Source: Stegostoma tigrinum
Taxonomy: Eukaryota
Reading direction: 5' to 3'
Assembly (NCBI RefSeq): GCF_030684315.1
Contig: NC_081363.1
Location: 26,786,116-26,850,115, forward strand
DNA: 64,000 nucleotides
In this document: in pieces, positions 1,529 through 63,029 of the stretch
How positions within the stretch are numbered: the first letter of the stretch is position 1
Layout: every line of letters begins with the position of its first letter
Notes under the pieces: model-generated
Database searches by the model: none
What the model was told of the DNA's origin: nothing
Seen by the model: the letters and a program-made list of their open reading frames with translations, nothing else
Program-made: the position numbers and the translations under genes

Positions 1529-1529
1529 A

Positions 1530-7342: not shown

Positions 7343-7560
7343 ATAAAAACCAAAAGAACTGCAGATGCTCTTTGGACTCTATCCCATCATTTACTCCCTA
7401 CCCCACCCACCTCCTTGTTTTTTGCGTATAAACTGATGTTTTCCCAGCCATCATCAGTTCTGAGGAAGGGTCACCAGACCTGAAACATTAACTCTGTTTT
7501 CTCCTCCCACAGATGCTGGCAGACCTGCTGAGCTTTTCCAGCAACTTTGTTTTTGTTCCT
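7343..7560 (+). mobile_element. Short PLE terminus (family B) with a hammerhead at 7456-7493 and an inverted tail at its left end
   Basis: agttCTGAGGAagggtcaccagacctGAAACATTaact. Flanking direct repeat ttcctcaat at 7325-7333 and 7556-7564. Confidence 0.75.
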
Positions 7561-10792: not shown

Positions 10793-11989
10793 ACACATGT
10801 GTGCGTTTTCACTTTGTGTGCTGAGCACCCTGGTTCAGGAGGAGAATATTTTGGTGAGCCTCCAGTTCTGTCCCAGTGAGCACGGCTGGATAAGACTTAT
10901 GTGGAAACCTTGGTGGAGATGTGGATCAGCCTTTTCTTCGATGTACTTTATATAATGAGCAACTCTGAACTGGGCTTGAGTCCCTGTTGTAGAATAGGCA
11001 ACGCACTAAAGTATTGTGCATTAATTCTACAGCTATAATTTCTCAAGAATCTATAATCTTTGGAGAAAAAGAGAAGGAAAATTTACTTTGCTTCTTGCAT
11101 TTTTTTCTTTAGAAACAGCTTTCAGGTCACCATTATCCTGAACAGCATTAAGTAGAATCTGTTGAGTGACCAATAACTTTAGTTAACAGACACCCATAAG
11201 GAAGTGACAGTGGAAGATGCAGGACGACTTGACTTTTCTGAAATGTGGTTTCTTCGTTTCTAGAATTCTCAAAATAGCACTTTAGATTTTATAAGAGACT
11301 TCTATTTTCACTGGCTGTACAGATTAGAAGTGGTTTAGGAAGGAAATAGATATAATTCCGGAGTGGAGTGAAAGTGGGAACAGGGTATAGAGTTGGATGA
11401 TTAGCAGAAATCATTGATGACTGAGCAGGCTCGAGGGACTAAGTGTGTGCTTCTCCGGCTCCTATTTTCAGTGTTTGCTGCAAACTAAACAAGCAATGAG
11501 CCTTGGCATAAATTCATTTTAAATTCTGTCACTGTGTGCATCTAGATTAAATTTAATCAAGCATCTCTGTTAATCTAGGCTAAGTTTATCATGTTCAGCA
11601 TCTCCAGTGTTCTTTTGTGGATGCATAACTAAGGTGGTGCCTGTTTCCTTTATTTTCCCTGAAGGCACAAACTGTTCTTAAGGTGTTTGCCAAGATCTGG
11701 TACTTCGCTTCAACTGTAAGCCAAGGTATTGGGCCCTAAGAGCCAGCAGCAACACTGACAAACTAGCTTGATTGAGAATAACTAACTCATGCAAACTGGA
11801 GATTGTATATTGACGTATTATCTACTGAGCCATAGTGTGTGATAGAGCTTGGTGAAGATGCCTATTGGATATCCTTTCTGCCAAATAAGTGTTGCGTTTT
11901 GCTAGCTGTCTGCAGTATGGAAGGTAGAATGATCTGGACAATCATTGATCTAATGTACGGTTGAGTTGACAAATGTTAACGTTGGAAGA

Positions 11990-12200
11990 GAGAGATAGCA
12001 AGAACTGCCAATGCTGGAGTCAGATAAGTGTGGAGCTGGAGGAACACTGCAGGGCAGGCAACACCGGAGGAGCAGGAAAGCTGACGTTTTGGATCAGGAC
12101 CCTTATTCAGAAATGCAAGAAATACTGCAGAAGGGTCTTGACTCAATGTCAGCTTTCCTGTTCCTCTGCCCAGTCTGCTGTATTCCTCCAGCTCCACACT
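11990..12200. mobile_element. Palindromic PLE-terminus mini-element (family C) with degenerate hammerheads on both strands
   Basis: Arms agtgtggagctggagga..ggaaagctgac / gtcagctttcctg..tcctccagctccacact. Direct repeat gttggaaga at 11981-11989 and 12201-12209. Confidence 0.8.
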
Positions 12201-12309
12201 GTTGGAAGAACTGCTTTAGTTGTGTGAACACTTAACACAGAAAGTTGCTGTAATTTGTGCCCGCAAAGTGTTTGCTACACGTTTAAGTAATGTTGTTAAA
12301 ATGTGAAGA

Positions 12310-12894: not shown

Positions 12895-13412
12895 AGAACA
12901 TAGAACATAGAACATAGAACAGTACAGCACAGAACAGGCCCTTCAGCCCACAATGTTGTGCCGACCATTGATCCTCATGGATGCACCCTCAAATTTCTGT
13001 GACCATATGCATGTCCAGCAGTCTCTTAAATGACCCCAATGACCTTGCTTCCACAACTGCTGCTGGCAACGCATTCCATGCTCTCACAACTCTCTGCGTA
13101 AAGAACCTGCCTCTGACATCCCCTCTATACTTTCCACCAACCAGCTTAAAACTATGACCCCTCGTGCTAGCCATTTCCGCCCTGGGAAATAGTCTCTGGC
13201 TATCAACTCTATCTATGCCTCTCATTATCTTGTATACCTCAATTAGGTCCCCTCTCCTCCTCCTTTTCTCCAATGAAAAGAGACCGAGCTCAGTCAACCT
13301 CTCTTCATAAGATAAGCCCTCCAGTCCAGGCAGCATCCTGGTAAACCTCCTCTGAACCCTCTCCAAAGCATCCACATCTTTCCTATAATAGGGCGCCCAG
13401 AACTGGACGCAG
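12895..13412 (-). mobile_element. Young 5'-truncated CR1 (HER1-like) LINE 3' end with a (TTCTATG)n tail
   Basis: Open frame 12989-13375 ALERVQRRFTRMLPG..RRGDLIEVYKI..FFTQRVVRAWNALP is the CR1 ORF2 C-terminus. (CATAGAA)n at 12895-12920. Confidence 0.95.
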
Positions 13413-14487
13413 TAATTGAGGTAATTGAGTAAATAGACAAACTATGGTAGAATGTCCCACAAACAGCACTTTAAATGAAAATGTAATCAAGTCTGATCCC
13501 AAACAGCTATTAGAGACACTGGTTCACTGAATCTGATTAAAACTCACATTCTTGAATTCTTCTTACTGCTTTTAAGAGATCTAGTTTTGGACCTCCAAGT
13601 CTCTTCAAGTTAGACTGTCTCAATGACTGATTTTATGTCTTAGTAACTTCTGAGACTGAATTCCCTGGTATTCCTGAAGTTGCTTTTAAAATATATAATT
13701 ACTGGCAAAATTTCAACTTTTATCAACCTGTTATCTTCATTTTAACCTGCTCCTGAGTTTCTGTAAGCTCCAATGTTTCTCAATTAGATCAAGCAAATAC
13801 TACTTTGGTGGGCTTCTTTCACCCTGCTTTCAGTTGCACTGAACTGTCAATGGCTCCTAGGGCTTTTCTTTACCCTTTTCCACAGCATGAGCTACCACTT
13901 TTCAGTTGTCTAGAGTCTACTGACAACAGCACTTCTGCTTTATCATCTCTTAACCACAAACTGAAGCTAACTCTCTCGCTTCAACAAATGCCCTGAGAAG
14001 TTGAAACTAGGGAACCATCTTGAACATCCATCTCCGTGATGCATAACATACTCTGATCTACCCTTAACCTGTCTTTTAGGCTAAGGGAATCATATTTTAG
14101 AATTTTTTTTCTCTTGGATGAATTAAATGAACTTTACATCCTTTGAGTTCACTAGATTTTTTTGACATTTAGTTTTTAATTCCCAAAACAAGCAATATTT
14201 CTGGACTGTCATTACCACAGGCCGGGCTCCAGGTCAGCAAGGACTCTTAGAGTTTTGATCCTACCTAATGCATAACCGCAAACATTTAAGGCTCTGATGT
14301 ACACTAATTGTATTTATTCCATTTTTACTGTTAGTCTTTTATACTAAACAATCATATACTAAAGAACATGACCCAGCATCCTCTTTTATATACCCTGATA
14401 TCTATCTATCTCTAATTGGAATGGACCAAGCATTTTTAGCTTATCCCTACCTGTGTAAATATGATAATTTAAACTTGACGTTCTGAT

Positions 14488-14722
14488 TAAAACCAAAAGA
14501 ACTGTGGATGCTGTAAATCAGCAACAAAAACAAAGTTCCTGGAAAAGCTGAGCAGGTCTGGCAGCATTTGTGAAGGAGAAAACAGTTAACGTTTCGGGTT
14601 TGGTGGCCCTTCCTCGGAACTGATGGAAGTTCTGAGGAAGGGTCACCGCACCCAAAATGTTAGCAGCTGTGAAAAAAGAGTTACCAGACCTGCTGAACTT
14701 TTCCAACAACTATATTTTTGTT
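14488..14722. mobile_element. Palindromic PLE-terminus mini-element (family B) with hammerhead motifs at 14586-14620 (-) and 14628-14663 (+)
   Basis: Minus: gttCCGAGGAagggccaccaaacccGAAACGTTaac. Plus: gttCTGAGGAagggtcaccgcacccAAAATGTTagc. Arms are inverted. Confidence 0.8.
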
Positions 14723-14908
14723 CTTGAAGTTATTGTTCCTGTGTAACTGGTTCCTTGTACACTGAGGACCAAAACTGGACATTAGAATTCTAAATGTGGC
14801 CTAACCAAGACCTTGTACAGAGACAAAACAATATGGTTTATTGTAAGATAATAAAATATGAGGCTGGATGAACACAGCAGGCCCAGCAGCATCTCGGGAG
14901 CACAAAAG

Positions 14909-14940
14909 CTGACGTTTCGGGCCTAGACCCTTCATCAGAG
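14909..14940 (-). ncRNA. Minimal type I hammerhead ribozyme, intact core
   Basis: Reverse complement ctCTGATGAagggtctaggcccGAAACGTCag. Confidence 0.85.
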
Positions 14941-15885
14941 AGGGGAATGGGGTGAGGGTTCCAGAATAAATAGGGAGAGAGGGGGAGGCGGACCGAAGAT
15001 GGAGAGAAAAGAAGATAGGTAGGGAGGGGATGTCAGTCCAGGGAAGACGGACAGGTCAAGAAGGTGGGATGAGGTTAGTAGGTAGGAGATGGAGGTGTGG
15101 CTTGGGGTGGGAGGAAGGGATGGGTGAGAGGAAGAACAGGTTAGGGAGGCAGAGACAGGTGGGACTGGTTTTTTGATGCAGTGGGTGGAGGGGAAGAGCT
15201 GGGCTGGTTGTGTGGTGCAGTGGGGGGAGGGGACGAACTGGGCTAGTTTTGGGATGCTGTGGGGAAGGGGAGATTTTGAAGCTGGTGAAGTCCACGTTGA
15301 TACCATATGGCTGCAGGGTTCCCAGGCGGAATATGAGTTGCTGTTCCTGCAACCTTCGGGTGGCATCATTGTGGCACTGCAGGAGGCCCATGATGGACAT
15401 GTCATCTAAAGAATGGGAGGGGGAGTGGACATGGTTTGCAACTGGGAGGTGCAGTTGTTTATTGCGAATGAGCGGAGGTGTTCTGCAAAGCGGTCCGCAA
15501 GCCTCCGCTTGGTTTCTCCAATGTAGAGGAAGCCACACTGCATCCCAAAACCAGCCCAGTTCATTCCCCCCCCCCCCCCGCACCACACAACCAGCCCAGC
15601 TCTTCCCCTCCGCCCACTGCATCCCAAAACCAGTCCAACCTGTCTCTGCCTCCCTAACCTGTTCTTCCTCTCACCCATCCCTTCCTCCCACCCCAAGCCG
15701 CACCTCCATCTCCTACCTACTAACCTCATCCCACCTTCTTGACCTGTCCGTCCTCCCTGGACTGACCTATCCCCTCCCTACCTCCCCACCTATACTCTCC
15801 TCTCCACCTATCTTCTTTTCTCTCCATCTTCGGTCCGCCTCCCCCTCTCTCCCTATTTATTCTGGAACCCTCACCCCATCCCCCT

Positions 15886-15917
15886 CTCTGATGAAGGGTC
15901 TAGGCCCGAAACGTCAG
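15886..15917 (+). ncRNA. Minimal type I hammerhead ribozyme, intact core; predicted cleavage after 15915 (GUC)
   Basis: ctCTGATGA-agggtctaggccc-GAAACGTC-ag: CUGANGA box, stem II, GAAA, palindromic ACGU, NUH triplet. Confidence 0.85.
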
Positions 15918-16539
15918 CTTTTGTGCTCCTGAGATGCTGCTTGGCCTGCTGTGTTCGTCCAGCCTCACATTTTATTATCTTGGATTCTCCAGCATCTGCA
16001 GTTCCCATTATCAGTAATACATGGTTTATTGTAAGTTGAAAAAGCTCATCTGTGCAAAGCAAAAGTCCAATTTGTTTAGGATTTTGTTTCTCTTGAGCTT
16101 TTTATTCTCTTGACAGCTTGCATTTCAGTTTGATGTAAAATATACTTATTGATTTTTTGCCTATGTACATAATGTTGTTTATCTTGGTCATGTGCCATTT
16201 ACCAGAACACAAACCATTCTCCCAATGCATTTTAATTTGCTAATAAACTTGTTTGTCACCCTGCACCTTTTTATTTCTAATGGATTCACAACAAATTGTT
16301 TCGGCTATGCAGTGAAATGATCTACTTTGTATAATGTTATGAGACCTCACATGAAAATTGTGTGGTGAAGGCAGGTTGTAAGTGGCCATGCTATCCATGT
16401 ATTGACAGGGAACTTTGTCTTTAAGTTATTGCTCTGACACCTGTAGTTTGTTTTCCTTTCTTCAGTGTACTGCCATTATTTTGGATTCCAGCTGAGATTG
16501 ATGTGTATAACATATACTGTTCTGCCTGGATTCGAACTT

Positions 16540-20007: not shown

Positions 20008-20226
20008 TAGAGCGTGGTGGGGTGCCTGGAACACGTTGCCAGCGGAGGTGGCGAAGGCGGGCACGACAGCATCATTTAAGATGTATCTAGATCGACACAT
20101 GAACGGACAGGGAGCAGAGGGATACAGATCCTTGGAAAATGGATGACAGGTTTAGATAGAGGATCTGGATCGACGCAGCCTTGGAGAGCCAAAGGGCCTG
20201 TTCCTGTGCTGTAATGTTCTTTGTTC
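20008..20226 (+). mobile_element. CR1 LINE 3' end
   Basis: RVVGAWNTLP-like end, then gggcctgttcctgtgctgtaatgttctttgttct tail. Confidence 0.85.
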
Positions 20227-21499: not shown

Positions 21500-22372
21500 G
21501 CCTTTATTGCTCAGTCCTGTGAGTATAGGAGTTTAGAAGTCATCTTCAGATTGTGTGCAAAGCATCAGTGAGGCTCTTCTGGAATGCTGTCTCCACTTCT
21601 GGTCACCCAGTCACAGGAAGGATATTATAAAGTTGGAGTGGGTTCAGAAGATATTTACTAAGTTGTTGCTAGGTATGGGAATTTTTTGAACTATGAAGAA
21701 AGGCTGGATAGGCTGGGACCTTGTTTCACTGGTGTGCAGGAGGCTGAGATGTTTTTATAAACTTCTATAATGTGGAGTACAGATAGATTTAATGGTACAA
21801 TTTTAGCCTCACTGCGAAGCCTCTTCCAGGGATGCCTAACCTGAAGAGGTTACCCTCCTCCCTCCGGACCAACCTCGGGGAATCTCTCTCCCACTGCAAC
21901 TCTCTTGTCCGCCTCCCCCTCTATCCCTATTTATTCCAGAACCCGCTCCCATCTCCCTCTCTGAAGAGTCTAGGCCCGAAACGTCAGCTTTTGGGCTCCT
22001 GAGATGCTGCTGGGCCTGCTGTGTTCATCCAGCTCCACACTTTGTTATCTTGGATTTAATGGTAGTTGTCTTTTCCTAGGATGGGGTATTTCAAGACTAG
22101 GGGGCACCTTTTTTTAAGGTGAGAGGATAGAGATTTTAAAAAAGACACAAGGCGAATGTTTTACACTGAGGGTGGTTCACGTGTGACATGCACTTCCTGA
22201 GGAAGTGGATGTGGCCACAATTACAATGCTTAAAAGACCTGTAAATAAGCACACGAGTATATGGAAAGGCTTGGACCAGGAGCAGGCAGGTGGGGCTAGC
22301 TTACATTAGGATTATGTCCAGCACGGACTGGTCAGATTGAAGCACCTGGCTCTGTGCTGTATGACTGTATGA
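21500..22372 (+). mobile_element. CR1 3' fragment split by a PLE insertion
   Basis: ORF2 C-terminal motifs on both sides of 21798-22052; 3' tail ctgtgctgtatgactgtatg. Confidence 0.8.
21798..22052 (+). mobile_element. 255-bp PLE family A insertion with a hammerhead (21959-21987, 3-nt deletion) and a 12-bp TSD
   Basis: TSD gatttaatggta at 21786-21797 and 22053-22064; ctCTGAAGAgtctaggcccGAAACGTCag. Confidence 0.85.
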
Positions 22373-22479: not shown

Positions 22480-22577
22480 AATTTCTGAAGAAGGGCCTAG
22501 GCTCACAACGTCAGCTTTCCTGCTCCTCTGATGCTGCGTGGCCTGATGTGTTCATCCAGCTCTACACCTTGTTACCC
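22480..22577 (+). mobile_element. Short PLE terminus (family C) beginning at a degenerate hammerhead
   Basis: CTGAAGAagggcctaggctcACAACGTCag. Flanking repeat gaaatattag at 22462-22471 and 22592-22601. Confidence 0.7.
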
Positions 22578-24330: not shown

Positions 24331-24426
24331 ACCAAGTTTTTTTTTAAAAGGAGGGCTAAAATTACGAATGTCTTAATGGATTTGCTTGAATTGGCTGTCA
24401 CATGTTTATAGAGGTAGAATTTTGGT

Positions 24427-24565
24427 AACAAAAAAAAGTTGCTGGAAAAGTTCAGCAGGTCTGGCAGCATCAAGGTGAAAACAGTTCGTGTTTAGGGGCT
24501 GGCCCTTCCTCAACTTTATTTTTCCTGATTTTACAGCATCTGCAGTTCTTTCAGTTTTTATTTAT
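24427..24565. mobile_element. Collapsed palindromic PLE terminus (family B), 13-bp TSD
   Basis: TSD gtagaattttggt at 24414-24426 and 24566-24578. Confidence 0.75.
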
Positions 24566-25005
24566 GTAGAATTTTGGTGTCAGGTTCATATTTAGAAATA
24601 TGCAAAATATCTTATTGTCAAAATGTTCTGTGAGGACAATTGACTCTGCTGCCAGCTTAAAGCCATAGTGGTCAGCGCAAGACAGTTTTAAATACTTTTG
24701 ATTTTTTGTTTTGCACGCTTGTTTGCTCACTTATGACCAAAATGGGCTGAATCTTTGGCACGACCGACAAAATGAAAACAAACAATTTGTGGTTTTAACT
24801 GTGCAGTTTAAAATGATTGCAAATACTCACTTAATTCTTGCTGTTGTGCTTTGAGGAAAAAAATGTTTTAGAATTTTTTTTGCTGGAAAGTAGAGGCTGA
24901 TCTACATTTGATGTGGGTCGGTAATGTTTTTCTTAAACTTTATTGCCTTGAAACTGTGTATATTTCTGTTTTTCACTAATTTATCCTGTCCTTTTCTCTT
25001 TCTAG

Positions 25006-31770: not shown

Positions 31771-32948
31771 AGAGATAATGGGAACTGCAGATGCTGGAGA
31801 ATCCAAGATAACAGTGTGTGGAGCTGGATGAACACAGCAGGCCAAGCAGCATCTCAGGAGCACAAAAGCTGACGTTTTGGCCCTAGACCCTTCATCAGAG
31901 AGGGGGATGGGGAGAGGGAACTGGAATAAATAGGGAGAGAGGGGGAGGCGGATCGAAGATGGAGAGAAAAGAAGATAAGTGGAGAGGAGAGTATAGGTGA
32001 GGACGTGGGAAGATGGACAGGTCAAGGAGGCGGGATGAGGTGGTAGGTAGGAAATGGAGGTGCGGCTTGAGGTGGGAGGAAGGGATGGGTGAGAGGAAGA
32101 ACAGGTTAGGGAAGCAGAGACAGGCTGGGCTGGTTTTGGGATGCAGTGGGGGGGGTGGGGGACGACGAGCTGGGCTAGTTTTGTGATGCACTGGGGGAAG
32201 GGGAGATTTTGAAGCTTGTGAAGTCCACATTGATACCATTGGGCTGCAGGGTTCCCAAGCGAGATATGAGTTGCTGTTCCTGCAACCTTCGGGTGGCATC
32301 ATTGTGGCACTGCAGGAGGACCAGGGTGGACATGTCGTCTGAGGGATGGGAGTGGGGGTTGAAATGGTTTGCGACTGGGAGGTGCAGTTGTATATTGTGA
32401 ACTGAGCGGAGGTGTTCTGCAAAGCGGTCCCCAAGCCTCCGCTTGGTTTCTCCAATGTAGAGGAAGCCACACCGGGTGCAATGGATACAATGTACCACAC
32501 TGGCAGATGTGCAGGTGAACGTCTGCTTGATATGGAAGGTCATCTTGGGGCCTGGGATAGGGGTGAGGGAGGAGGTGTGGGGGCAAGTGTAGCACTTCCT
32601 GCGGTTGCAGGGGAAGGTGCCGGGTGTGGGGGGGGGGGGGGGGGGGGGGGTGTGTGGAGCGGACAAGGGAGTCACGGAGAGAGTGGTCTCTCCGGAAAGC
32701 AGACAAGGGTGGGGATGGAAAAATGTCTTGGGTGGTGGGGTCGGATTGCAGATGGCGGAAGTGTCGGAGGACGATGCGTTGTGTCCGGAGGTTGGTGGGG
32801 TGGTATGTGAGAATGAGGGGGATCCTCTGGGGGTGGATGTGGCGGGGGTGGGGTGTGAGGGTATGTTGCGGGAGATGCGGTCAAGGGCGTTCTCGACCAC
32901 TGCGGGGGGGAAGTTGCAGTCCTTGAAGAACTTGGGCACCTGGGATGT
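31771..32948 (-). mobile_element. 5'-truncated PLE family A (linker + GIY-YIG + terminus with tail); hammerhead at 31869-31900 carries G12A
   Basis: ORF 32175-33047 contains CNRRKCYTC..VVHCIHCTRCGFLYIGETKRRLGDRFAEH..EQQLISRLGTLQPNGIN. Reverse complement CTGATGAagggtctagggccAAAACGTC. Confidence 0.93.
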
Positions 32949-33844
32949 CCTTGAAGAACGTGGACATCTGATATCTGAGGTCTGATCTGATATTGTGATA
33001 TGAGGTGCCATTAGGATCCCTGAACTCAGCAACAGTATGGAAGCCAAAGCCTACACGGAATTCCACCTCATCCGGACTGAGGCATACTGCTACCATCTGC
33101 TTCGGCCAACTGGGCCAGAGTGTCCCTGAAAAGTTTGTATCATCTCTATAGCCTATTTAACTGTGACATCAATTTCCAGAAGTTGAAAAGTGTATGAAGG
33201 CTCTAAGAGGCTGAGTGTTAAATTTTCACAGCTTCAAATAACTCCTTCAGTGTTTTACTTGAGCAGTTCTGGGTCTGAAGGTAATACTAAGCTCCTTAAT
33301 CTGAGTTGCTAGAGATTTGTTTTGTTTTTAAGAAATTATCTCCTCAGTTGTGCAGGAGCAATGTTTTAAGTATCAGTCTTCAGCTGTAAACCCTGCAGAA
33401 ATCTGCCAAATTGAAACTAAAACAGGAAGGTTATCATTGTTTCCTTTTTAAGCTTAAAGCCCAGAATATTTCATTAGATAGCCTACACTATATAAATTTC
33501 ATGTGTAAACTCTCCAAATGTGAACAAAATACCATTAGTTGTTAAACTCCATAGGCTACTAGTTCAAAATTCAAAAATACATTTTTCTATATATGTAAAT
33601 CTTACACTCCATAATCACACTACACATGGACTCTTTTTTTTGCTATGCTAACAAAATATACTATGATTGCTTAGTGTACCCTACAGAGTCGTAAGTTAAT
33701 GTACTGGAATATGACTGAACAGTTAGGAAACAGGGTATCGTAGTATAAAGTTATTTTCACTTAGAAAGTTCCATTCCGGAAGTGTTTGGTTGGAACCCTG
33801 AGGGGTTATTTGAAGCTGGGAAAGTCTAAGAATATGGTAGACAA

Positions 33845-41860: not shown

Positions 41861-41924
41861 AAGAATGATTTTGATTTTATTTTCAAAAGTTGCACTAGCA
41901 ATTCACAAGGAACAATTATTAAAA

Positions 41925-42108
41925 TAAGTCTGGAGCTGTAGGAATACAGTGGAGCAGGAAAGCTGACGTTTCGGGTCGGGACCCTTTTTCTGACGAGTCG
42001 TGACCTGAAACGTCAGCTTTCCTGCTCTGATGCTGCCTGGCCTGTTCTGTTCCTCCAGCTCCACATTGTTATCTCTGACTCCAGCATTGGCAGTTCTTAC
42101 TATCTCTG
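41925..42108. mobile_element. Palindromic PLE mini-element (family C); + strand hammerhead at 41988-42016; 13-bp TSD
   Basis: gagcaggaaagctgacgtttc / gaaacgtcagctttcctgctc; CTGACGAgtcgtgacctGAAACGTCag. TSD aattRttaaaata at 41914-41926 and 42113-42125. Confidence 0.85.
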
Positions 42109-44104
42109 AGTGAATTGTTAAAATATGTTTGTCACCCTGCAGTTTCAAGCTTTTCCTGTTTGAATTGTTAATCCAAGAATTTTATCAAAGCAAAGCATCA
42201 CACAAGTTGTGTGTATGCAACTTAATTCTGATATGTATCGCTGCTAACATACAAAGAACATTTTTTTTGCATAAGCATAAAACTTCCAAAGATTCCACAA
42301 GTGTTCCTAGAATTGTAGCTATTAGCTTGTTCCTGTTGTCTGTAGAGGCTCTGTTTCGCAGAGTTCAAAAAGATAACATTTTGATTTCTGTCCATCATAT
42401 CACTTTCCTCTTGCTGTGCAGAACTCTGTTGTTTTACAGCTTTTTTTAGTCAGAGAGAGGGAGAGAGAGAGAATTGGCAAATTTCAGTGACACACTCCTA
42501 ATCTTTGTGCATTTCCCAGTCATTGTCTAAGCAGTCTGTATTCTTTAGCAAAGCATCCTTTTGCTTCATGGTGATCATGATTTTCCCTTCACTGATAATT
42601 GCTGCATTTATATCATCATATGAGAATTAGTCACCACCAGTGTATTGAAGAATCATCAATTCCTGGATCTGTAATGCACAGAAGTTACTAAATGGTAGAT
42701 CAAATGCTGTCATCTTAACTAGGTGCCTTTTGTTTTGATGGCAAACCACATCCTCTTGTACAAATGTAATGCTTGATCGATTTAAAGAATTGAGCTGAAC
42801 TAATATGGAATCCAGAGTGATGACTTCTGCATAGAACTTGAATGATATTTGTTTAATTGTGGTGATTAGTAATGGAATGAGATCTCTTCCATCAGTGAAA
42901 TACTGTAATTTGGTGTTTTAAATGCTAATTAGACCCAGTAGTTTTGTGGTAGTTAGATTACAGAGGTTGTGGTTAATAACAATCCCACTATAACTTTGGA
43001 AACTTCTATTAAGCTTTTTAAAAATTTAGAGAATTTTTAGAATAAATCTGGTTTTGGCAAGGTTGCCATTTTTTTGAGACCTGATCTGCCATTGACCTTT
43101 CTAATAATGACCCTTGTTTTAGAAATGATCTAGCCATCATTCACTCACTCACATGGTGTTAAACAAGTATGTCAATTTCACCGCCTCGAGGGACATGGGA
43201 ACATCAACGGGAAGTTGTGCACCGTCTTGATTTGGACATTATTGACCTCCCTTTTAATGATTGTTTGATCAAGATCCCGGAAAACTGCACTTAACAGCAT
43301 TGTGGAGCTACCTTCATCAAACATATAGCAGTGATTCAAGAAGAACCAAAGATATTTAGCAGGTAGAAAATACGTGTGGGCCTTGTCAGTGGTACCCATA
43401 CCCTAAGAGTAAATTGGAAAGAAATAATAGCATATTTTATGTTGTTAGGTAGTGTGAAAGTACTTTCAATACAAGCAATCATTTAACCAAAGAGTTTAAA
43501 AATAAATAGAAAAAAAACCCCTTGGTTTTAAAAAGTTGCAAGATTTACTTTTTTAAGACTTATGTTTTTTGTAACCTTGATGGAAGAGAATTTGACGGTT
43601 TTTATAACCAAGTCTAGTCATGTACATTGTGTTCTCTGTCGCAACCTTGGACATTGTAGAAGTACAGTACAAATCAAAGTTACATATGGCAATTTATATT
43701 CGTCTAAACCTGACTGCACATGTGGATTGTAGTCAATGTATAAGCTTTGTGGTTCAAAACTAATTAGGACTGTTTTTATGACACGGTACCTGAAACTGGA
43801 GAATGGATTCATTATTGCATAACAGATTACTTCTGTTTGAAAAATGGGAGTAACTTTCCATAGGCTTAAATTTCCTACTTTTTTTTTTTGTATGACCATC
43901 TTTTGAACTTAATGTGGCTTCCACTGAAATGAACCTACATATTGGCCTCTAATTTCTGTTTTGGGGGTGTAGAAGTCAGCCAGTTTTCCCATTCTGGAAC
44001 CCTGCAAAAATCCTTGCTGCATATGCCTGAGTGCAAATTGAGGGTAGGTTTGGGCTTGGCTGTGATTTTCCTCTCCTATTGATACTTTGCTGCCAAGCAT
44101 GAGG

Positions 44105-45232
44105 GCCCCATGGTGTTCGAGGTACGCTACTGGCTTGGATTGAGGATTGGCTGTCTGACAAGGCAGAGAGTTGGGATAAAAGGCTCTTTTTCGGAATGGC
44201 AACTGGTGACGAGCGGTGTCCTGCAGGGTTCAGTGTTGGGGCCACAGCTGTTCACCTTGTATATTAATGATCTGGATGAAGGGACTAGGGTGCATTCTGG
44301 TGAAGTTTGCCGATGATGCAAAGATAGGTGGACAGGCAGGTAGTACTGAAGAGGTGGGGAAGCGGCAGAAAGATTTAGACAGTTTAGGAGAGTGGTCCAG
44401 GAAATGGCTGATGAATTTCAATGTGAGCAAATGAGGTTTTGTACTTTGGAATAAAGAATACAGGGATGGACTATTTTCTAAATGGTGAGAAAATTTGCAA
44501 ATCAGAAGTGCAAAGGGATCTGGGAGTGTTGGTCCAGGATTCTCTAAAGGTTCACTTGCAGGTAGAGTCTGTAATTAAGAAAGCGAATGTAATGTTGTCG
44601 TTTATCTCAGGAGGGTTGGGATATAGAAGCAGCGATGTGCTTCTGTGGCTTTATGAAGCTCTAGTTAGGTCCTATTTAGAATACTGTGTCCAATTTTGGG
44701 CCCCACACCTCAGGAAGGACATACTGACGCTGGAGCGTGTCCAGCGGAGATTCACACGGATGATCCCTGGAATGGTAGGTTTAACGTATGATGAATAGCT
44801 AAGGATCCTAGGATTGTACTCATTAGCGTTTAGAAGGTTGAGGGGAGATCTAATAGAAACTTACAAGATAATGTATGGTTTAGAAGGGGTGGTCGCTAGG
44901 AAGTTGTTTCTGTTATGTGGTGAGACTAGGACCCGTGGGCACAGCCTTAAAATTAGAGGGGGTAAATTTAAAACTGAAATGAGACGACATTTCTTCAGCC
45001 ATAGAGTGGTGGGCTTGTGGAATTCATTGCCACAGAGTGCAGTGGAGGCTGGGACATTGGATGCCTTCAAGGCAGAGATTGACAAATTATTCTGAGAAGG
45101 AATCAAGGGCTACGGGGAGAGTGCAGGGAAGTGGAGTTGAAATGCCCATCAGCCATGATTTAAATGGCGGAGTGGACTTGATGGGCCGAATGGCCTTACT
45201 TCCACTCCTATGTCTTATGTTCTTATGGTCTC
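44105..45232 (+). mobile_element. 5'-truncated CR1 LINE, ~1.1 kb (RT core to 3' tail), frameshifted
   Basis: [49 protein letters not shown]; (TCTTATG)n-like tail. Confidence 0.95.
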
Positions 45233-51349: not shown

Positions 51350-52580
51350 GAACCAAAACAAAAGTTGGTGGAAAAGCTCTGCGAGCCTGGCAGCATCTGT
51401 TTTGGTGGGGGTGGGGGGGGTGCAGAAGGTGGAGGTAAATCAAAGATAATATTTTGCTTTGGTGATCCTTCCTCCGAACTGATGGTAGCTAGGAAACAGT
51501 CAATTTATATGCAGAAGATAAGGTGGGGGTGTGGAGATGAGGGGTAAATGATATGTGGGGGGAGAAGAGCAGATGGACATACAAAGGAGTGGATAACAAT
51601 CCGGCTAGGAGGGTGAATAGCTGCTGGTAGCTAACAGTGGGTGGTGTGTAATGGCAGACTGTCATAACAAGGCCTGGTGTTGGGGTATGGGGCTGGGACA
51701 TGGGAGAGTTCAGACTCTTAATTATTGAACTCGAAATTGAGTCCAGAGGGCTGCAGGGTCCCCAAGCGGAAAATGACATGTTGTTCTTCCAGCTTGTGCT
51801 GAGCTTTGCTGGAGCACTGCCAGGGACGGAGATGTTGGCCAGGCAACAGGGTGGTGCATTAAAGTGGCAGGCAATTGAAAGCTCTGTCTTTTTTGTGAGC
51901 AGAATGTAGATGTTCTGCGAAGTGGCCTCAGTCTACACTTTGTTTCCCCCGTGCAGAGGAGACCACACTGTGAGCAGCGAATGCAGTAGACAGTAAAGTG
52001 CTGCTTCACCTGGAAGATACATTTTGAGCCGTTGGATATTAGGGACCAAGAATGTAAATGGGCAGGTGTTACACCTTCAGTGATTTTGCAGGAGAAGGTG
52101 CTGTGGCGAGGTCTTGGGGGGTGAAGGAAGAGTGGGCCAGGGGATCCCGGAAGGAATGGTCTCTGGAAGCGGATGAGGGAGGGGAGGAGAGGGGAATATG
52201 TGCCTGGTCGTGGCATCTCACTAGAGCTGGTGGAAGTGGCACCTGATGATCTATTGGATGTGGATGCCGGTGGGATGGTAGGTAAGGACAAGGGGAACCC
52301 TATTGCTGATGTGGGAGGGAGGAGAGGGGGTGAGGGTGGAAGTGCTGGAGATGGATCAGACCCAGTGCTGGTGAATTCTTAGTTGTGAGGAAGAAGTGGG
52401 CATTTCAGAGACTCGCTTGTCAAAGTTGGCCTCATTGGAGCAATGCGACGGAGATGCAAGAACTGAGAATTGAATGGAGTCTTTACAGGAAGCTGTGTAT
52501 GAGGATGTGTATTCCAGGAAACTGGGAGTCAGTGGGTTTATAGAGCATGCTTAGTGGCCAGTCTACCTCCAGAAATGCCA
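51350..52580 (-). mobile_element. 5'-truncated older PLE (family B-related), linker + GIY-YIG + terminus
   Basis: ORF 51722-52291 contains VYCIRCSQCGLLCTGETKCRL; collinear with 1880-2770. Confidence 0.85.
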
Positions 52581-54249
52581 ACAGAACTAATGGCAACTAA
52601 CATGCTGTGATCTGGCGTTGGATGGGTCTGTGCAATATTGTCTCTTACAGAGAAGAGTAAGCCTTTCCACTGCACCTAGCAAAATTTCCCTCCATGTTTT
52701 TTTTCCTATATAGGCTTTCCTCAGCATCTATCTTTTCTTTCCTGTAATTTCATCGGCATTTGCTCACCACCAAGAGATCCAGTAATCATGAAGTTCATAA
52801 TAGACAGATCAGATGTCTTAACTTGACCTTTCTGCTACTCAGTACATTGTTCTTAGGTTACGTTTCTGCATCCATTCTGAACAGAGTGGAAAGTCTTTTG
52901 AAACTGAACACCCTCTTTTATTTCCCTCCCAACCCTGGGGTCACAGCTGGCAGATGAACACAACACTGCAGTCCTGCACAACGTAGGCCTGTGGCAGGAG
53001 TCCAGTAATGTATGCCATTTGGATGAAGTTAAGAGGGTAGGCTCACTGACAATTGTGGTCTTTCTAAACCGATACCCTGGTGAATGTTGGTAATGTGAGT
53101 GGTTTGTAATTGATGTAACCTTTCCTTTGCATGCGGACCAAACTGGAAGGTTCTTGAAGCTGTGTACAATGTTCACTGCTCAATACAATGCAATTAAAAT
53201 GCAACATATGACCAAGCATAAACTTCTCCAGAGAGAGACCCAGATTCCAGAAACAGAAGTACTCAGAAGGTCAGACAATAACTGTTCTGGGAGAAATGAG
53301 TTATTGATTAGTACCTTGCACCTTGCTTCCTTAGTGGGTTCAGTGGTTGAGATTGAGGTTTTGTAGGGGGTGGGTTGTAGGTGGCAACACCATCTTGCAT
53401 TGGTTGGCAGGCTGGCCTGTGGATGACTTTCCTATGCTGTGCCAATTGAAGTCCTGAAGTGGGCCATTGATGCCCGCTTTGAGGGCCTCACCTTAACATT
53501 GCCCATCGAGGAGACTCTCCACCTGGGGAGTAAGATCAGCAAACTGGTCTGTTTAACTCCTGGTTAAAATGGTTGGAAGGAATTCAATGCCTACTTTAAA
53601 GAACCTGGCACCAAGAGAGCACAACTCCATTAACAACCACCCACCTGTCCTTGCTGTCAACAAGCCCCTTGACCTGCTTCCTACCATCGTTCATTTACCA
53701 TTGCTTGGACCAAAGCCTCAAATTGAGGAAAGGGTGGGTCCTCTGCTGCTAGGAGCCACCACCCCCAGCTGGGATTACTGAATACTGAAGAACTGTAGGT
53801 CTTTGATTTGATCTCGCTGGGCACCTCTCAGGTCTTTGATCCCAAGGAAGACCCACTGATGGCCTGCTGTAAGTGCCTGAATGGCAGAAGAGGCACTGGG
53901 TGCCCCTTAATACTGGCAACATAGGGTTCCCATTCGCGGTCCCACAGGCAGCTAAGAAACCCCATTCTACATGATTCGGCCAGAAGTTTCAGGCCAGTGA
54001 CTTGTCGTCAGAGCTGGAAAAAGTTAGTGAGGAGTGATGTAAGGTGTTTGGAATGTGGGTCAGGTAGATGTCATAAGTTATGACATCCCTGAGTGGTTTG
54101 GGTTTACAATCCCAATCCAAGATCTGATACTCCAAGACCTCATATTCCGAGATCCACCTGGCCATTTCAATTGCTACAGATATGAGATTTTGAATTAAAT
54201 ACAGAGCAATAGGAAAATAAAAATCAAAGGTTTGGTGATTGGGTGGAGA

Positions 54250-54500: not shown

Positions 54501-54554
54501 CCATTGTCACAACTCCGTTGGTAACTGTGCAGTGGAAAACAAGACCCACTTTTT

Positions 54555-55500
54555 TTTTTCTATGAATTTGTTGGATGTTGGCATTGCTGGCTGGCCAACA
54601 CTTCTTCGTGCCCATCTGTAGGTACCCTTGAGAAGGTGGAGGTGAGCTGCCGCCTTGAACTGCTGCAGCCCACCTGTGGGTTGACCCACAATGCTATTGA
54701 AGAGGAATTCTAGGATTTTTGACCCAGCGACAGTAAAGGAACAGCAGTATATTTCCAGGTGAGGACGGTGAGTGACTTGGAAGGGAACTTGGAGGTGGTG
54801 GTGTTCCCACGTGTTTGCCGCTCGTATCCTTCTAGATGGAAGTGGTTGTGGGTTTGGAAGGTGCTGTCTAAGGATCTTTGAATTTCTGCAGCATATCTTG
54901 TAGATAGTACGTATTGCTGCTATTGAGTGGTGGTGGAGGGAGTGAATGCTTGTGGATGTAGTGCTAATCAATCGGGCTGCTTTGTCCTCTGGCGCCATGC
55001 TTCTTGAGTGTTGGGCTGCAGTCATCCAGGCAAGTGGGGGGTATTCCATTACACTCCTGACTTGTGCATAAGGCAAGGTGGTGCACAGGCTTTTGAGGAA
55101 TCAGGAGGTGAGTTATTCGTCACTAGTATTCCTAGTTTCTGGCCTGCTCTTGTAGCCACTGTTAATGTGGTGAGTCCCAATTGAGTTTCTGGTCAATAAT
55201 AACCCCCAGGACGTTTGACAGTGGGGGATTCAGTGATGGTAACACTTGAATGTCAAGGGGTGGCAGGTTGTGTCTTATTGGCATGGTCATAGCCTGGCAT
55301 TTGTGTGGCGTGAATGTCACTTGCCACTTGTCAGCCCAAGCCTGGATATTGCCCAGATCTTGTTGCATTTGAACATGGACTGCTTCAGTATCTGAGGAGT
55401 CACAAATAGTGCTGAACATCGTGCAGTGATCACCAAACGTTCCCACTTCTGACATTTTTATGATAGAGGGAAGGTTACTGATGAAGCAGCTGAAGGCAGT
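54555..55500 (-). mobile_element. Second CR1-clade LINE family, RT C-terminus to 3' end
   Basis: FGDHCTMF (degenerate FADD), QQDLGNIQAWADKWQVTFTPHKCQ, AQVRSVMEY..LAWM. Confidence 0.85.
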
Positions 55501-56202
55501 GTGCTGATCGCTCTTTCTACTTGGAGCTGATGCAAAGTTTTAAATTTGTGTTGTTGTAGCTGATTTGAACTGAAGAAAAGTTTCAGCTGCCAACCTGCAA
55601 TTTGATTTGAATTTTTCAGCGTTAGGGTACCATCTTTCTCTGTCTGCTCATCTATAAGTGATGGTGGATCTAGATGATCGATTTAAGCCATGTGCCTTTT
55701 AACATACAACCACAAAATAATTGAGAAGTAGTCAAATGACGTCTCTATTGGGAAATATTGAATAAAATCCTGTAATTCCCTTGCTCATTGCCCAAAAAAT
55801 AGTTGTTTCTCTTAAATGATATTTATAGTGAATCTGAAGCACAGTGTAATTCCAAGAACGCAGGCTATTTTTAATTTTTGAATCATGTACACAGATGACT
55901 GACTAATGTGCATGCTGGAGGATGAGAATTTCCTTCTGTTCCACTATCTCTACCTCTCTGCCACCAAAATGCTTCAGCTTCAAGTGCCCATCAATTATCA
56001 CCATGGATTCTCTTTCTCAGAGCCTAATCATAAGGTTACGTGGAGAGTGGCGCGGCACAAAGTCTTTGTTTCTCAGTGGTACCTGGAGCTTCTATGTACA
56101 TCACTGACCAAGAATTTGCATTTCTAAAGCACCTTTTTTGAGCCTTGGGATCAATCCAATGACCTTTTCAAAGACTGATTTTTATCCTTTTTGAGGTGTA
56201 GC

Positions 56203-56362
56203 CAACACCATGCAGAGCTGGAAGAACACTGCAGGTCAGGCAGCATCAGAGGAGTGGGAAAGTCGATGTTTCGGGTGGGGACCCTTCATCAGGACAGCCT
56301 GCTGTGTTCCTCCAGCTTCACGCTGTGTTGACTCTGACTCCAGCATTGCAGTTCTTGCTATC
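56203..56362. mobile_element. Palindromic PLE mini-element; - strand hammerhead at 56262-56295; perfect 12-bp TSD
   Basis: Reverse complement gtcCTGATGAagggtccccacccGAAACATCgac. TSD ttgaggtgtagc at 56191-56202 and 56363-56374. Confidence 0.85.
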
Positions 56363-56409
56363 TTGAGGTGTAGCTGCTATTGGGACATAGGAATCTTCTC
56401 TGCACTGAA

Positions 56410-56830: not shown

Positions 56831-57839
56831 AAATTTCTATAAAACATAAATGTTCTTTACTAAAGAGGTTTTTAGGGAGGGAGTTTTAATAAAGCTGATT
56901 GTGAGAGAGGCTAGGTTCCAACCGTTAGTGGAAAATAAATCATTATCTAATTTATTTCTTCAATACAAGTGGATGAACTGGAAGACCAGCCATTGTGTTT
57001 ACTTTTTTAAAAAAAACTATTTGTGTTCAGTACACTAAAGCATCTGTTTAAATAGTCATTAAAGAAATATCAGGAAGCATCTTGCAAAAGAACAGTAAAA
57101 CCGTTGTTTCCATGACGCACCAAGTCATGTGGTTCGAAGACACATGGGGTGGTGTATGATTCGGTCCTTTTAATTTGATTTGTATCAGCTTGGCAAAGAC
57201 AACATCAGGCAGGGATGCATTCCTTTGCTTTATGTCAAAAAATGCTTTATGTATGGTAAAACATTGTGCAGACATCCCACTGTCTGTGGCCAGGCATGAA
57301 AGTATTGGTGATTGGGTTATGACGTGAGCACGCCTTGCAGATGGTCCCTCCTCAGTGAAACAGTCAGTGATGCAGCGTCACATCAGCTGCAACTCACCTC
57401 TTTGTCAAGTTGGGCGAATCACTACCAGAGCCAACAAAAGCTTGTTTGGAGATTATAATAGTGCGTTTGAGATGTTGATGTGGGTGTATTGAAATATTCC
57501 AGTACGTCATAGAAGTTAAAGCACCTGCTGGGGTGGTTTATTAAAGCTTCCAGCTGATCAAATGTCATGCTAACTCCATTGCACAAGGTCTAAATAGAAA
57601 GACAATTTAACCTGTGAACTAATTTTTTTATGGTGCAATGTAGTACTTGTTCTTCACATTTTAATTGTTAGATTTCTCTGTCTCTTCCTTTTTATTTTTA
57701 ACATATAAGCTGACCTTTAACAGTTACAAAATGAATGAGTCGATGGTATGATTGCTCAATGTGCCATTGTCATTCTGTACTGAAGTGAATGCAATGCAGT
57801 AAGTGTGGTTAGAACTATATTGATAGCATAAGGGAATGG

Positions 57840-58630
57840 AACACCCACATCCAGCAACTTGGAACTATGCCGAGAGAGGAGGAGGAGGAGGAGGAATACC
57901 TCCTACAAGTGTTCAAGCATAATGGGTATCCAAAGAACTGGGTCAGGAGATGCCTACAGGAAGAGCATCAGAAAGATTCTACACGCCCCGACACACTCAT
58001 CACACTACCCTATAACAGGAACACATCAGAACTCACCAAGACTCCTATGACTGCTGGCATCAGAGTGGCACACAAGCCCATATCAACCCTACGACAACTG
58101 CTCACCCGAATTAAAGACCTACTCCACCATGGACAGGACCAAAGTCATCTACAAAATCCCCTGCAGAGACTGTGAGAAACACTACATTGGACAAACAGGA
58201 AGGAAACTAACAGCAAGAATGCATGAACACCACCAACTGGCTACAAAAAGACACGACCAATACTCACTCATATCAATCCACGTGGACAAGGTGAACCATG
58301 ACTTTGACTGGGACAACACCAAGATCCTGGGACAGGCTAGGCAGAGACAAGCACGATAACGCCTGGAAGCATGGCACTCCACATAGCATGCTATTAATAA
58401 ACACATTGAACTCAACCCCATATACATTCCACTATGGAGGAAACCCAGAAGTGAGGCAATCCCAGAGTTTAAAAACCCAGGTGGGAAAGCACACAGCTTC
58501 ATCAGAGGCTGCACTGAGCATGTTACCAAGCACGGTAACGAAACGTCTGCGGAACAACAAACCAGCTCGGCGAGTCAACCAGCCTCAACACTCTCAACCC
58601 GAGCTACAGATCTACTCCAGAACCTTAAAT
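57840..58630 (+). mobile_element. Penelope/Poseidon-type PLE 3' part (short linker + GIY-YIG)
   Basis: NGYPKNWV..ITLPY..GIRVAHKP..VIYKIPCRDCEKHYIGQTGRKLTARMHEH..FDWDNTKIL; no Cys-rich linker. Confidence 0.9.
58511..58550 (+). ncRNA. Minimal type I hammerhead of a different PLE clade (G8C variant)
   Basis: gca-CTGAGCA-t-gttacc-aagcac-ggtaac-GAAACGTC-tgc: stem I gca/tgc, 6-bp stem II. Confidence 0.8.
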
Positions 58631-59884
58631 TATTGAATTAGCTTTATTGCCATGTGCACTTGAATGAGTGCAGTAAAAAGTTTGCAATGGTGCCATCTTC
58701 TATACAAGATACCTAGGTACAGATGGTACAGAATTGAAAGAATAATAAATAAGACCCCAGCATGAGAAGGAGAAAGGGAAAGAAAGTACGCTATTTACAG
58801 CCCTGTCACCCTCCAGTCCATGCCAGCACGTAGCCTGCAGACCCTGCTGGGCCTCAAATATGGAGGCCTTGACTCCAGCCTGCAAGGGCCTCACCACCCC
58901 GCGCAAGCCTCCAGTCTGGACCTCTCCTGCTGGGGTCAACTTCTAAGTAGTCTGTAAACAAGTGGTCCATTACCTTCTCCTGAAAACCTCCTGCACTATT
59001 CACAAAATGCACTTTTAACGTGAGTGATCCTGTGGAATCAGATGCACCAACTACCCCCTTCACTGCTGTGATCGCAGCACATTACACCTCAAATGTCCCT
59101 TTCTGTAGATAGTAATTATACTATTGTGTATTTTGTCAATAGTATAAGATTGCTAAAGCTTTCTGCTAAAGTTAATTTCACAGAAACCTGTTGTACTTAG
59201 CAAGGGCAGAAACCTGTTCCCATCCTAGTTGCCTGCCATTTTAACTTGGACCTTCTCATAAGGAATCCTTTGTTAAAAATCCTGAAATTTCCAATGCAGC
59301 CCCATTCTGGGAGCATTATCCTCGGAGTGCAGTGCTTTAAGAAAACCAACCACCTTCTTTGGAAAGATGCCAACAGCAGTAAATAAACAATTTTATTGAA
59401 AGGCTCGATGCAGTAAAAGCTCTTGTAGTTAGATGTGTGGGGGCTGGAAGACCATTAACATGTCAAGTGAATATGTCAGGACATATAAATGTGAAAAAGA
59501 TTTGAATGCCTCTGAAAAATTTTTCTATTTGGCCACATGTGCTCTAACATTACAGTAAGTGATGTAGGGCTAGTCTGCAAAATTACTGAAATAAAAGTCT
59601 ACAATAACCCTTAACTGTTTAAAAGAAGTGATGCAAAATCATGGCTTAAGTGTCTAAACTAGAGATCTTAATTCTGAGTTAGAACTGTAATATATTTTCT
59701 AATTTGGAAGCTGGGAGTCGCAATTATGTAGCTGCAGAGAGAGCAAGATCTGTTTATTTTATGGTATGTTCTGTCAATACTTTAAACACTACACTTTTTT
59801 TAATTGTAATTTATGCATCAAGTTCCTGTACAGTAATAACTAGTGGCTGCAGCTTTGTGTGACCTTGGCCTTCACCTCTAGGAA

Positions 59885-62490: not shown

Positions 62491-62599
62491 GATTCTGCTA
62501 CCATTTGAGAGGCTGGTTTGAGTTGATTTTTGGGTTTTGTGACCTCACTTGAGTCTTGGACCTTGCCCCAGCATGTATCCAACAACATCTCCGTTCTTG

Positions 62600-62822
62600 T
62601 GATTATTGAAACTGCAGATGCTGGAGAATCCAAGATAACAAAGTGTGAAGCTGGATGAACACAGCAGGCCAAGCAGCATCTCGGGAGCACAAAAGCTGAC
62701 GTTTCGGGCCGAGACCCTCCTTCAGAGCTCTGATGAAGGATCTAGGCCCGAAACGTCCGCTTTTGTGCTCCCGAGATGCTGCTTGGCCTGCTGTGTTCAT
62801 TCAGCTTCACACTTTGTTATCT
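62600..62822. mobile_element. Loop-less 190-bp palindromic PLE family A mini-element with back-to-back hammerheads, a one-sided 33-nt tail and a 16-bp TSD
   Basis: Arms 62633-62727 and 62728-62822 centred on GAGCTC. TSD aacatctcYgttcttg at 62584-62599 and 62823-62838. Confidence 0.93.
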
Positions 62823-63029
62823 AACATCTCTGTTCTTGATGCCTTATTGAATCAGACTTCTCCCAGGGCCATGCAAAAGTTGGTAGGAATGTTTGATCTC
62901 ATGCTTAAGGTACTGTTTTGAAGCTTTTCCATTGTCCTGCTTGAAGAGCATCCAGTTCTGAGGAGTGATGATAACCGATGACTTGTTCTGGTCTTCCCAT
63001 GTAAATGCAACAATTAAGAAGGCACAATG

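Follow-up and report, generated by a model that had tools for sequence, protein, structure and literature searches.

Inverted pLTRs, one-sided tails of 30–40 nt, target-site duplications (TSDs) and palindromes at the junction are published features of PLEs, and how these elements come by ends that are tandem or inverted has been called undefined (PMC3846280; PMC8557442). Pen2, Pen2a and Pen3a of Adineta vaga, for example, combine head-to-head inverted pLTRs with such a tail on one side, a TSD and junction palindromes (PMC3846280; scheme in PMC8557442). Here, we describe a palindrome of the same general architecture at 62.6 kb of a 64,000-nt stretch of the Stegostoma tigrinum genome; this whole stretch is referred to below as the window. 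Compared with the A. vaga elements, as presented in the accessible parts of those papers, the palindrome contains only two pLTR ends, its junction is loop-less, and junctions in the window are clustered at the start of the ribozyme.

Several other systems share some of these properties. The minimal hammerheads of metazoan PLEs have in common with the motifs described here an extra base between positions 9 and 10.1, the pair G10.1–C11.1, a palindromic 15.2/16.2 without loop III, and a short stem I (PMC4209133). Dual minimal hammerheads on opposite strands have been reported at distances of about 100–700 bp (PMC4209133), whereas here only 4 nt separate the two cores, each is the antisense of the other, and both are lesioned. 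The Poseidon element PAc of the green anole also has a tail with two fixed bounds, and its ribozyme lies about 100 nt inward from the end of the pLTR; it belongs to the Penelope/Poseidon clade, in contrast to the parent element here with its CX2-5CxxC linker, and the accessible part of the PAc text reports no head-to-head products (PMC11167929).

Non-LTR retrozymes are likewise non-coding, hammerhead-bearing and related to PLE pLTRs, but they are head-to-tail tandems with type-I ribozymes on the same strand, an arrangement absent from the palindrome, which is head to head with ribozymes on opposite strands (bioRxiv 10.64898/2026.07.22.740005). MITEs are also short and non-coding, with inverted repeats and a TSD (PMC8969392). 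They are defined by terminal inverted repeats at both ends and an origin from DNA transposons, whereas the palindrome has asymmetric ends with a tail on one side, a long TSD of variable length, and retroelement-derived pLTR sequence throughout; neither a DNA-transposon partner nor identical siblings were found in the 64-kb window. UCON13 is listed as Penelope-derived, with no mention of palindromes in the part of the source available (PMC5753468).

Our literature search, whose reach did not extend to most subscription journals or to Repbase and Dfam, found no description of a junction hot spot or of shark PLE palindromes, and repeat databases may already contain palindromic consensus sequences of this kind. 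The head-to-head architecture is already known; what appears, from what we found, not to have been described is a minimal form free of coding sequence and a clustering of junctions where the ribozyme starts, with a possible promoter explanation.

The palindrome and its parent element

The palindrome is the strongest inverted repeat within 60–64 kb of the window, with arms of 95 nt each, a 0-nt spacer and 94% complementarity that ends immediately outside the arms. Its left arm (62633–62727, minus sense) is a PLE pLTR whose 5' end lies 2 nt upstream of CUGA, and carries the 33-nt tail (62600–62632, minus strand), which is the extreme 3' end of the element. The right arm (62728–62822, plus sense) is a second pLTR copy spanning −2 to +92, and copies 14846 and 4182 share its tail-less end. 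Three differences separate the tail from those of copies 16013, 28926 and 31774, and tailed ends lie at +124/+125 counted from C3. The two TSD copies (62584–62599 and 62823–62838 on the plus strand) are identical at 15/16 positions, for which the chance is about 1e-8 per position pair by arithmetic; the left copy is flush with the end of the tail and the right one with the end of the palindrome. These features had been reported in a first-pass annotation of the sequence: its 95-bp arms with no loop and six mismatches are reproduced exactly on re-measurement, the 33-nt tail is present on the left only, the 16-bp TSD abuts both ends, and the centre 2 nt upstream of CUGA follows from C3 at 62730 (plus) and 62725 (minus).

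The palindrome consists of two pLTR ends and nothing else, and both arms are 91–93% identical to the termini of longer repeats in the window (family A). Five longer repeats continue beyond the position of the join into purine-rich sequence, and at three of these five loci they extend into coding relics of RT and endonuclease. A decayed, near-complete parent with RT and GIY-YIG lies at 1525–4182 (minus strand); it has an inverted tail-less pLTR from about +11, and no TSD was found for it. A 5'-truncated, tailed copy at 31774–32950 (minus strand) retains a CX4CxxC linker and the GIY-YIG domain. Both arms of the palindrome are the 3' end of this parent, flanked by a TSD, with one tailed and one tail-less end, and the PLE origin suggested in the first-pass annotation therefore holds, the RT/GIY-YIG relics of that element sharing the window.

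The parent shows the traits of an EN+ PLE, namely RT followed by a C-terminal GIY-YIG endonuclease, a one-sided 33-nt tail, an inverted 5'-truncated pLTR and a TSD of variable length (9–22 bp). A window RT piece retrieved five homologues among 378 candidates, all of them from carpet sharks (Stegostoma, Rhincodon, Chiloscyllium), and the window relics align along the RT and EN of these proteins (P0001–P0005). At E ≤ 0.01, RVT_1 was found in 4/5 and GIY-YIG in 3/5, with some matches below the curated cut-off. The Pfam scan of eight frameshifted ORF pieces of the window gave no match (0/8), and the parent is classified through the named homologues rather than through a direct Pfam scan. The CX4CxxC motif stands upstream of the EN within 32178–33050 (minus strand), and a CX2-5CxxC linker before GIY-YIG marks the Neptune and Nematis clades (PMC8557442); judging by the linker motif and the vertebrate host, the parent would be a Neptune-type PLE.

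PLE ends are very common in the window: an HMM built from nine PLE termini has 35 matches, 34 of them at E < 0.01, and no match on the reversed window. Relics of more distant PLE families, with 29–50% identity to shark proteins, lie at 51351–52523 and 57813–58636. A family-A copy at 21795–22065, with a 12-bp TSD candidate, switches at about −65 to a 110-nt purine-rich segment that is unique in the window; it is possibly an internally deleted copy retaining a 5' piece of the element. ORF fragments at 12989–13441, 44427–44798 and 54507–55539, one piece of which was scanned with no Pfam match, resemble what we take to be the 3' ends of CR1/L2-type LINEs. The plus strand of the window has 19891 T against 16936 A, and more G than C, a composition that would fit a long intron transcribed from the plus strand.

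The six mismatches between the arms are at 62654/62801, 62697/62758, 62711/62744, 62715/62740, 62719/62736 and 62721/62734, and each arm has three changes relative to four other copies. As noted in the first-pass annotation, five of the six fall in or near the ribozyme cores; these five are within 31 nt of the centre (p=0.013, for a span picked post hoc). The p-value is 0.038 when an N7 variant common to copy 1525 is left out, and 0.015 against the other copies. This central clustering is marginal; mutation or selection toward asymmetry at palindrome centres is one possible source of it. The outer arms have 1 change in 128 nt, compared with 4 changes in 65 nt for the tail plus TSD (p=0.045). 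Arm-to-arm gene conversion was considered as the cause of these near-identical outer arms and rejected as unsupported, since the arms share no private variant relative to the four compared copies.

Hammerhead motifs within the palindrome

The first-pass annotation had also reported a hammerhead motif on each strand, and we located a minimal type-I motif on both. The minus-strand motif (62692–62731; C3 at 62725, C17 at 62698) has a 6-bp stem I created by the join and a core change of A9 to G at 62719. In the plus-strand motif (62724–62763; C3 at 62730, C17 at 62757), the first pair of stem I is broken at 62758, where position 1.1 has changed from A to C, and one stem II pair is broken at 62740. 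Neither copy combines an intact core with an intact first stem I pair. Changes of A9 to G, of 1.1 A to C and in stem II are expected to impair hammerhead cleavage; the mismatches would damage the ribozymes, and there is no compensatory change.

An Rfam scan of the whole window at E ≤ 5 gave five matches, none of them a hammerhead (0/5). Across 16 copies of the motif in the window, 78.9% of cells are paired, compared with 17–44% for slid partners. Five of the nine pairs vary on both sides, a number reached by 12 of 500 shuffles, in an alignment of 16 rows that contains one misaligned row and several rows with non-native upstream bases. This covariation gives moderate backing to the hammerhead motif across families.

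When 13 loop-less join offsets from 0 to −12 are compared, −2 is the single one that gives a longer stem I (6 bp against the native 2 bp), in agreement with the join geometry set out in the first-pass annotation. Its accompanying proposal that the symmetric AGCT could extend stem I stands for the minus strand (6 bp) and fails for the plus strand, in which the first pair is broken. For a distal helix as a possible rescue of the native stem I, the constrained fold lies 11 kcal/mol above the best fold.

The palindrome is predicted to fold mainly against itself. Folding prediction makes its hairpin more stable than the hammerhead fold by 44–46 kcal/mol, with G12–A15 paired in all six transcript prefixes tested. 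From either strand, the antisense arm is transcribed first and each transcript has one sense ribozyme, while minimal PLE hammerheads are inactive in vitro as monomers and need dimers (PMC4209133). The ribozyme core is predicted to be sequestered in a hairpin in any read-through RNA, and the palindrome is, on these folding models, not a working double ribozyme. Self-cleavage was also considered as the source of the junction and rejected: cleavage takes place about 30 nt downstream of the junction and does not set it.

Two further observations concern the hammerheads of the window. Loop II of family A (15889–15915 and other copies) carries a CUAG that is palindromic, as are stem III and the AGCU past the cut site; such sequences could help to hold an intermolecular dimer together. 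At 53985–54025 (minus strand), a hammerhead-like core has AGCT directly upstream of CUGA, with no mirror arm and no recognisable downstream pLTR.

The first-pass annotation had considered that the palindrome might be a MITE-like, non-autonomous ribozyme retroelement that amplifies as a unit, in which case the −2 join could have been favoured through its 6-bp stem I. The observed join is indeed the sole stem-I-lengthening offset (1/13), the element has its own TSD, and its mismatches concentrate around the ribozymes. In addition, pLTRs suffice in cis for mobilisation (PMC3846280), and pLTR-derived non-autonomous retrozymes exist (bioRxiv 10.64898/2026.07.22.740005). However, a second copy of the −2 junction was not found within the 64-kb window, which is also the full extent of the sibling count, and the junctions of all eight scored pairs differ. 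Its RNA is predicted to be a 95-bp hairpin with a sequestered core; it would have a single sense ribozyme, yet dimers are needed; and its lesions would harm the ribozymes, without compensation. The TATA-like box has been lost, the arms lack a shared private variant against the four other copies, and the parent's own mechanism already accounts for the tail-less end. We regard amplification as a unit as highly improbable, and the palindrome as very probably a product of PLE insertion that does not amplify itself. Stray copies were also sought among bacterial and archaeal contigs; two exact scans each returned 0, a result that is uninformative on sharks.

Junctions of head-to-head pairs

The window holds further head-to-head pairs, and coding-free PLE palindromes occur several times within its 64 kb. 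A sister insertion of family A (14833–16035) has arms that reach −594 (tail-less) and −355 (tailed), a 33-nt tail and an exact TSD of 15 bp. Older pairs are found in family C at 14489–14727 (arms to −9, tailed, and −4, tail-less) and in family B at 11981–12209 (9-bp TSD, 14-nt spacer at CUGA) and 41914–42131 (join at about −3/+6, TSD 16/19). Two more, also older and with a short tailed arm, are at 56191–56374 (12-bp exact TSD, tail-less start at −3/−4) and 24405–24578 (TSD 19/22, tail-less start at −4 to +1). Eight pairs were scored, six of which have TSD candidates of 9–22 bp; a ninth (35036/35592), an old pair with arms 82% alike, was excluded because a 380-nt insertion, related to 20011–20217, hides its centre. 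The 62.6-kb palindrome is the shortest form of this known type of PLE insertion.

In the eight pairs, the tail-less arms start at about +11, 0, −4, −594, −4 to +1, +3 to +6, −3/−4 and −2, and the tailed arms end at about −2468, −5, −9, −355, +80, −3, +60 and −2. For families whose upstream DNA is not known, these offsets may be off by a few bases. Four of the eight tailed arms end near CUGA. Among the tail-less arms, seven of the eight have their start between −4 and +11 nt from CUGA, a span picked after seeing the data, with junctions read by eye in 64 kb only. Binomial P-values for this clustering range from 2e-9 to 6e-5 over four length nulls (P ≤ 6e-5 for the harshest). The count becomes 6/7 (P ≤ 3e-4) without the 62.6-kb element, 7/9 if 35036/35592 is taken as a miss, and 6/7 if 1525/4182, which has no TSD and possibly represents two events, is dropped.

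There may be no true hot spot at all: random 5' truncation with inversion could give the same picture through small numbers, later central deletions and the detection of short pairs. No two of the eight junctions are alike. The three family-A pairs share their tail-less end (+92/+93) and differ in their junctions, only that of the 62.6-kb element (1/3) sitting at −2, and other family-A arms end at −2468, −1052, −594, −355, about −65 and about +35 to +55. Four pairs also look as if bases near the centre have been deleted, and such deletions can shift junctions. Against this, the P-values are low under all four nulls, pairs were detected via their outer ends, independently of the position of the junction, and deletions would be expected to blur a peak rather than create one. 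We therefore consider purely random junctions unlikely.

The first-pass annotation had argued that junctions unique to each copy and evenly spread along the PLE would point to ordinary abortive insertions; in the eight window pairs they are unique, but they are not evenly spread. It had also suggested that reverse transcription often folds back just after copying the ribozyme. Joins do cluster there (7/8), but simple fold-back of the first cDNA is doubtful: in the sister insertion, the tail-less arm is the longer one (−594 against −355), so fold-back of one tailed first strand cannot yield it.

We also surveyed junctions by way of mis-predicted proteins, in which none of 16 candidates was scorable and three weak matches had 34–45% identity; this approach is insensitive because reading frames close near the junction. 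Single PLE termini at 22484, 33926, 39271, 45893, 63689, 10464 and 31188 appear to stop within a few bases of CUGA; they were left out of the junction count, their native upstream sequence not being established. In 1525–1633/4100–4182 and 14846–14940/15886–15980, the two arms differ at family-variable sites, as if they came from two pLTR templates, while the 62.6-kb element has arms that match each other there.

Proposed RNA start and route of insertion

A TATA-like box is present at −33 to −35 in all copies with native upstream DNA in families A (5/5), C (2/2) and H (1/1). In the native family-A parent it lies at 15854–15860 (plus strand), with C3 following 34 nt downstream, and it is found at 7427–7432 (plus strand), at −33, in family C, which has a second copy at 51503–51509 (minus strand). 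Shuffling gives P=5e-5 for family A, 0.005 for family C and 0.11 (not significant) for family H, for a TATA pattern that was loosened post hoc at one position so that the family-A motif scores fully. The three families are related by descent, and between families only 5–11 of the 23 bases from box to CUGA are identical. Among nine other termini, none has a box scoring at least 6/7 at the same position, and the palindrome itself has no TATA-like box.

The spacing from a TATA box to the start of transcription is about 30 nt, which would place the RNA start at −2 to −5. Arms start close to this position and to native stem I: at −2 in family A (stem of 2 bp), at −4 in family C (4 bp) and at −3/−4 in copy 56292 (3 bp), so that arm start and first base of the native stem coincide, or differ by at most 1 nt, in all three. 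The tailed arm of family C extends to −9, beyond the proposed start. For A. vaga, a putative TATA plus initiator has been described in the pLTR (PMC3846280). Penelope of D. virilis has a TATA-less internal promoter and an intron that ends at helix I (PMC2377424; PMC4209133), so the layout of TATA box and ribozyme is not universal.

The palindrome could be the same kind of PLE by-product with another cause for the stop, such as bound PLE protein, the structure of the ribozyme, an upstream C-rich tract or a splice boundary, and with a join made perhaps by self-primed fold-back. A self-primed hairpin requires a loop. The junction has none, and a single strand cannot give a tail-less arm that exceeds the tailed arm, although self-priming has been proposed for palindromes at PLE inverted junctions (PMC3846280). 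Protein may sit nearby, given that the anole ribozyme depends on PLE protein (PMC11167929). The distance of about 30 nt between the junction and the cleavage site speaks against self-cleavage as what defines the junction. A splice boundary is suggested by the D. virilis intron ending at helix I (PMC4209133) and by pyrimidine-tract/AG motifs at −12 and −4 in family C, which resemble a splice acceptor. An AG is lacking at the join in family A, however, and family C is without a C-rich tract. Taken together, these other causes of the stop seem to us clearly less probable than a run-off at the RNA end.

We favour, with a probability of about 0.55, a single insertion of a Neptune-type PLE, in which run-off pLTR cDNAs, copied from RNA starting at the ribozyme, were joined head to head. 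The argument is drawn from sequence comparison. For retroviruses, minus-strand strong-stop DNA provides the model of a cDNA that is primed near the 5' end of the RNA and runs off at a fixed length. PLE RNA would start where stem I of the ribozyme begins, the TATA-like box lying about 30 nt upstream. The PLE protein would nick and extend both target strands and would prime at two internal positions of the RNA, one on either side of the tail. From the two target nicks, a cDNA with the tail and another without it would then grow toward each other. When primed in the upstream pLTR, a cDNA would run off after about 95 or 128 nt, like retroviral strong-stop cDNA. Both cDNAs would stop at the same base, and a template jump or blunt join would give the loop-less palindrome. 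The 6-bp stem I would be a by-product of the join, and the ribozymes would be passengers, trapped in the hairpin and decaying. L1 twin priming also uses two primers at one target site, and produces an inversion of a different part of the RNA, whereas the palindrome copies the same terminal segment twice.

The priming steps are extrapolated from the anole PLE protein, which in vitro cuts and extends both target strands without requiring ribozyme cleavage, is predicted to be a dimer, and has two internal RT start sites that bound the tail (PMC11167929). That enzyme is a Poseidon protein and the parent here is Neptune-type, so twin priming is carried across clades. As to the clustering of junctions, we see about an even chance that the 5' end of PLE RNA is its cause. 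Somewhat more tentatively, transcripts of shark Neptune-type elements may generally start at the hammerhead, and strong-stop cDNAs, each paired with a second cDNA from the opposite target strand, may explain inverted pLTRs and mass-produce MITE-like palindromes de novo.

That the palindrome matters as a working double ribozyme is, on the folding models, very unlikely. For annotation, PLE palindromes can be mistaken for MITEs or miRNA hairpins: that at 41954–42025 matches mir-3136 in Rfam with E=4e-4, below the gathering score, and is likely to be a source of false miRNA annotation. If they are intronic, such palindromes would supply double-stranded RNA of about 95 bp to host silencing or editing. 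Minimal insertions of this kind would preserve, within about 250 bp, traces of the two RT start sites, of the cut in the target and of the point where RT stopped, and would thus serve as a test case for the open mechanism of PLE insertion.
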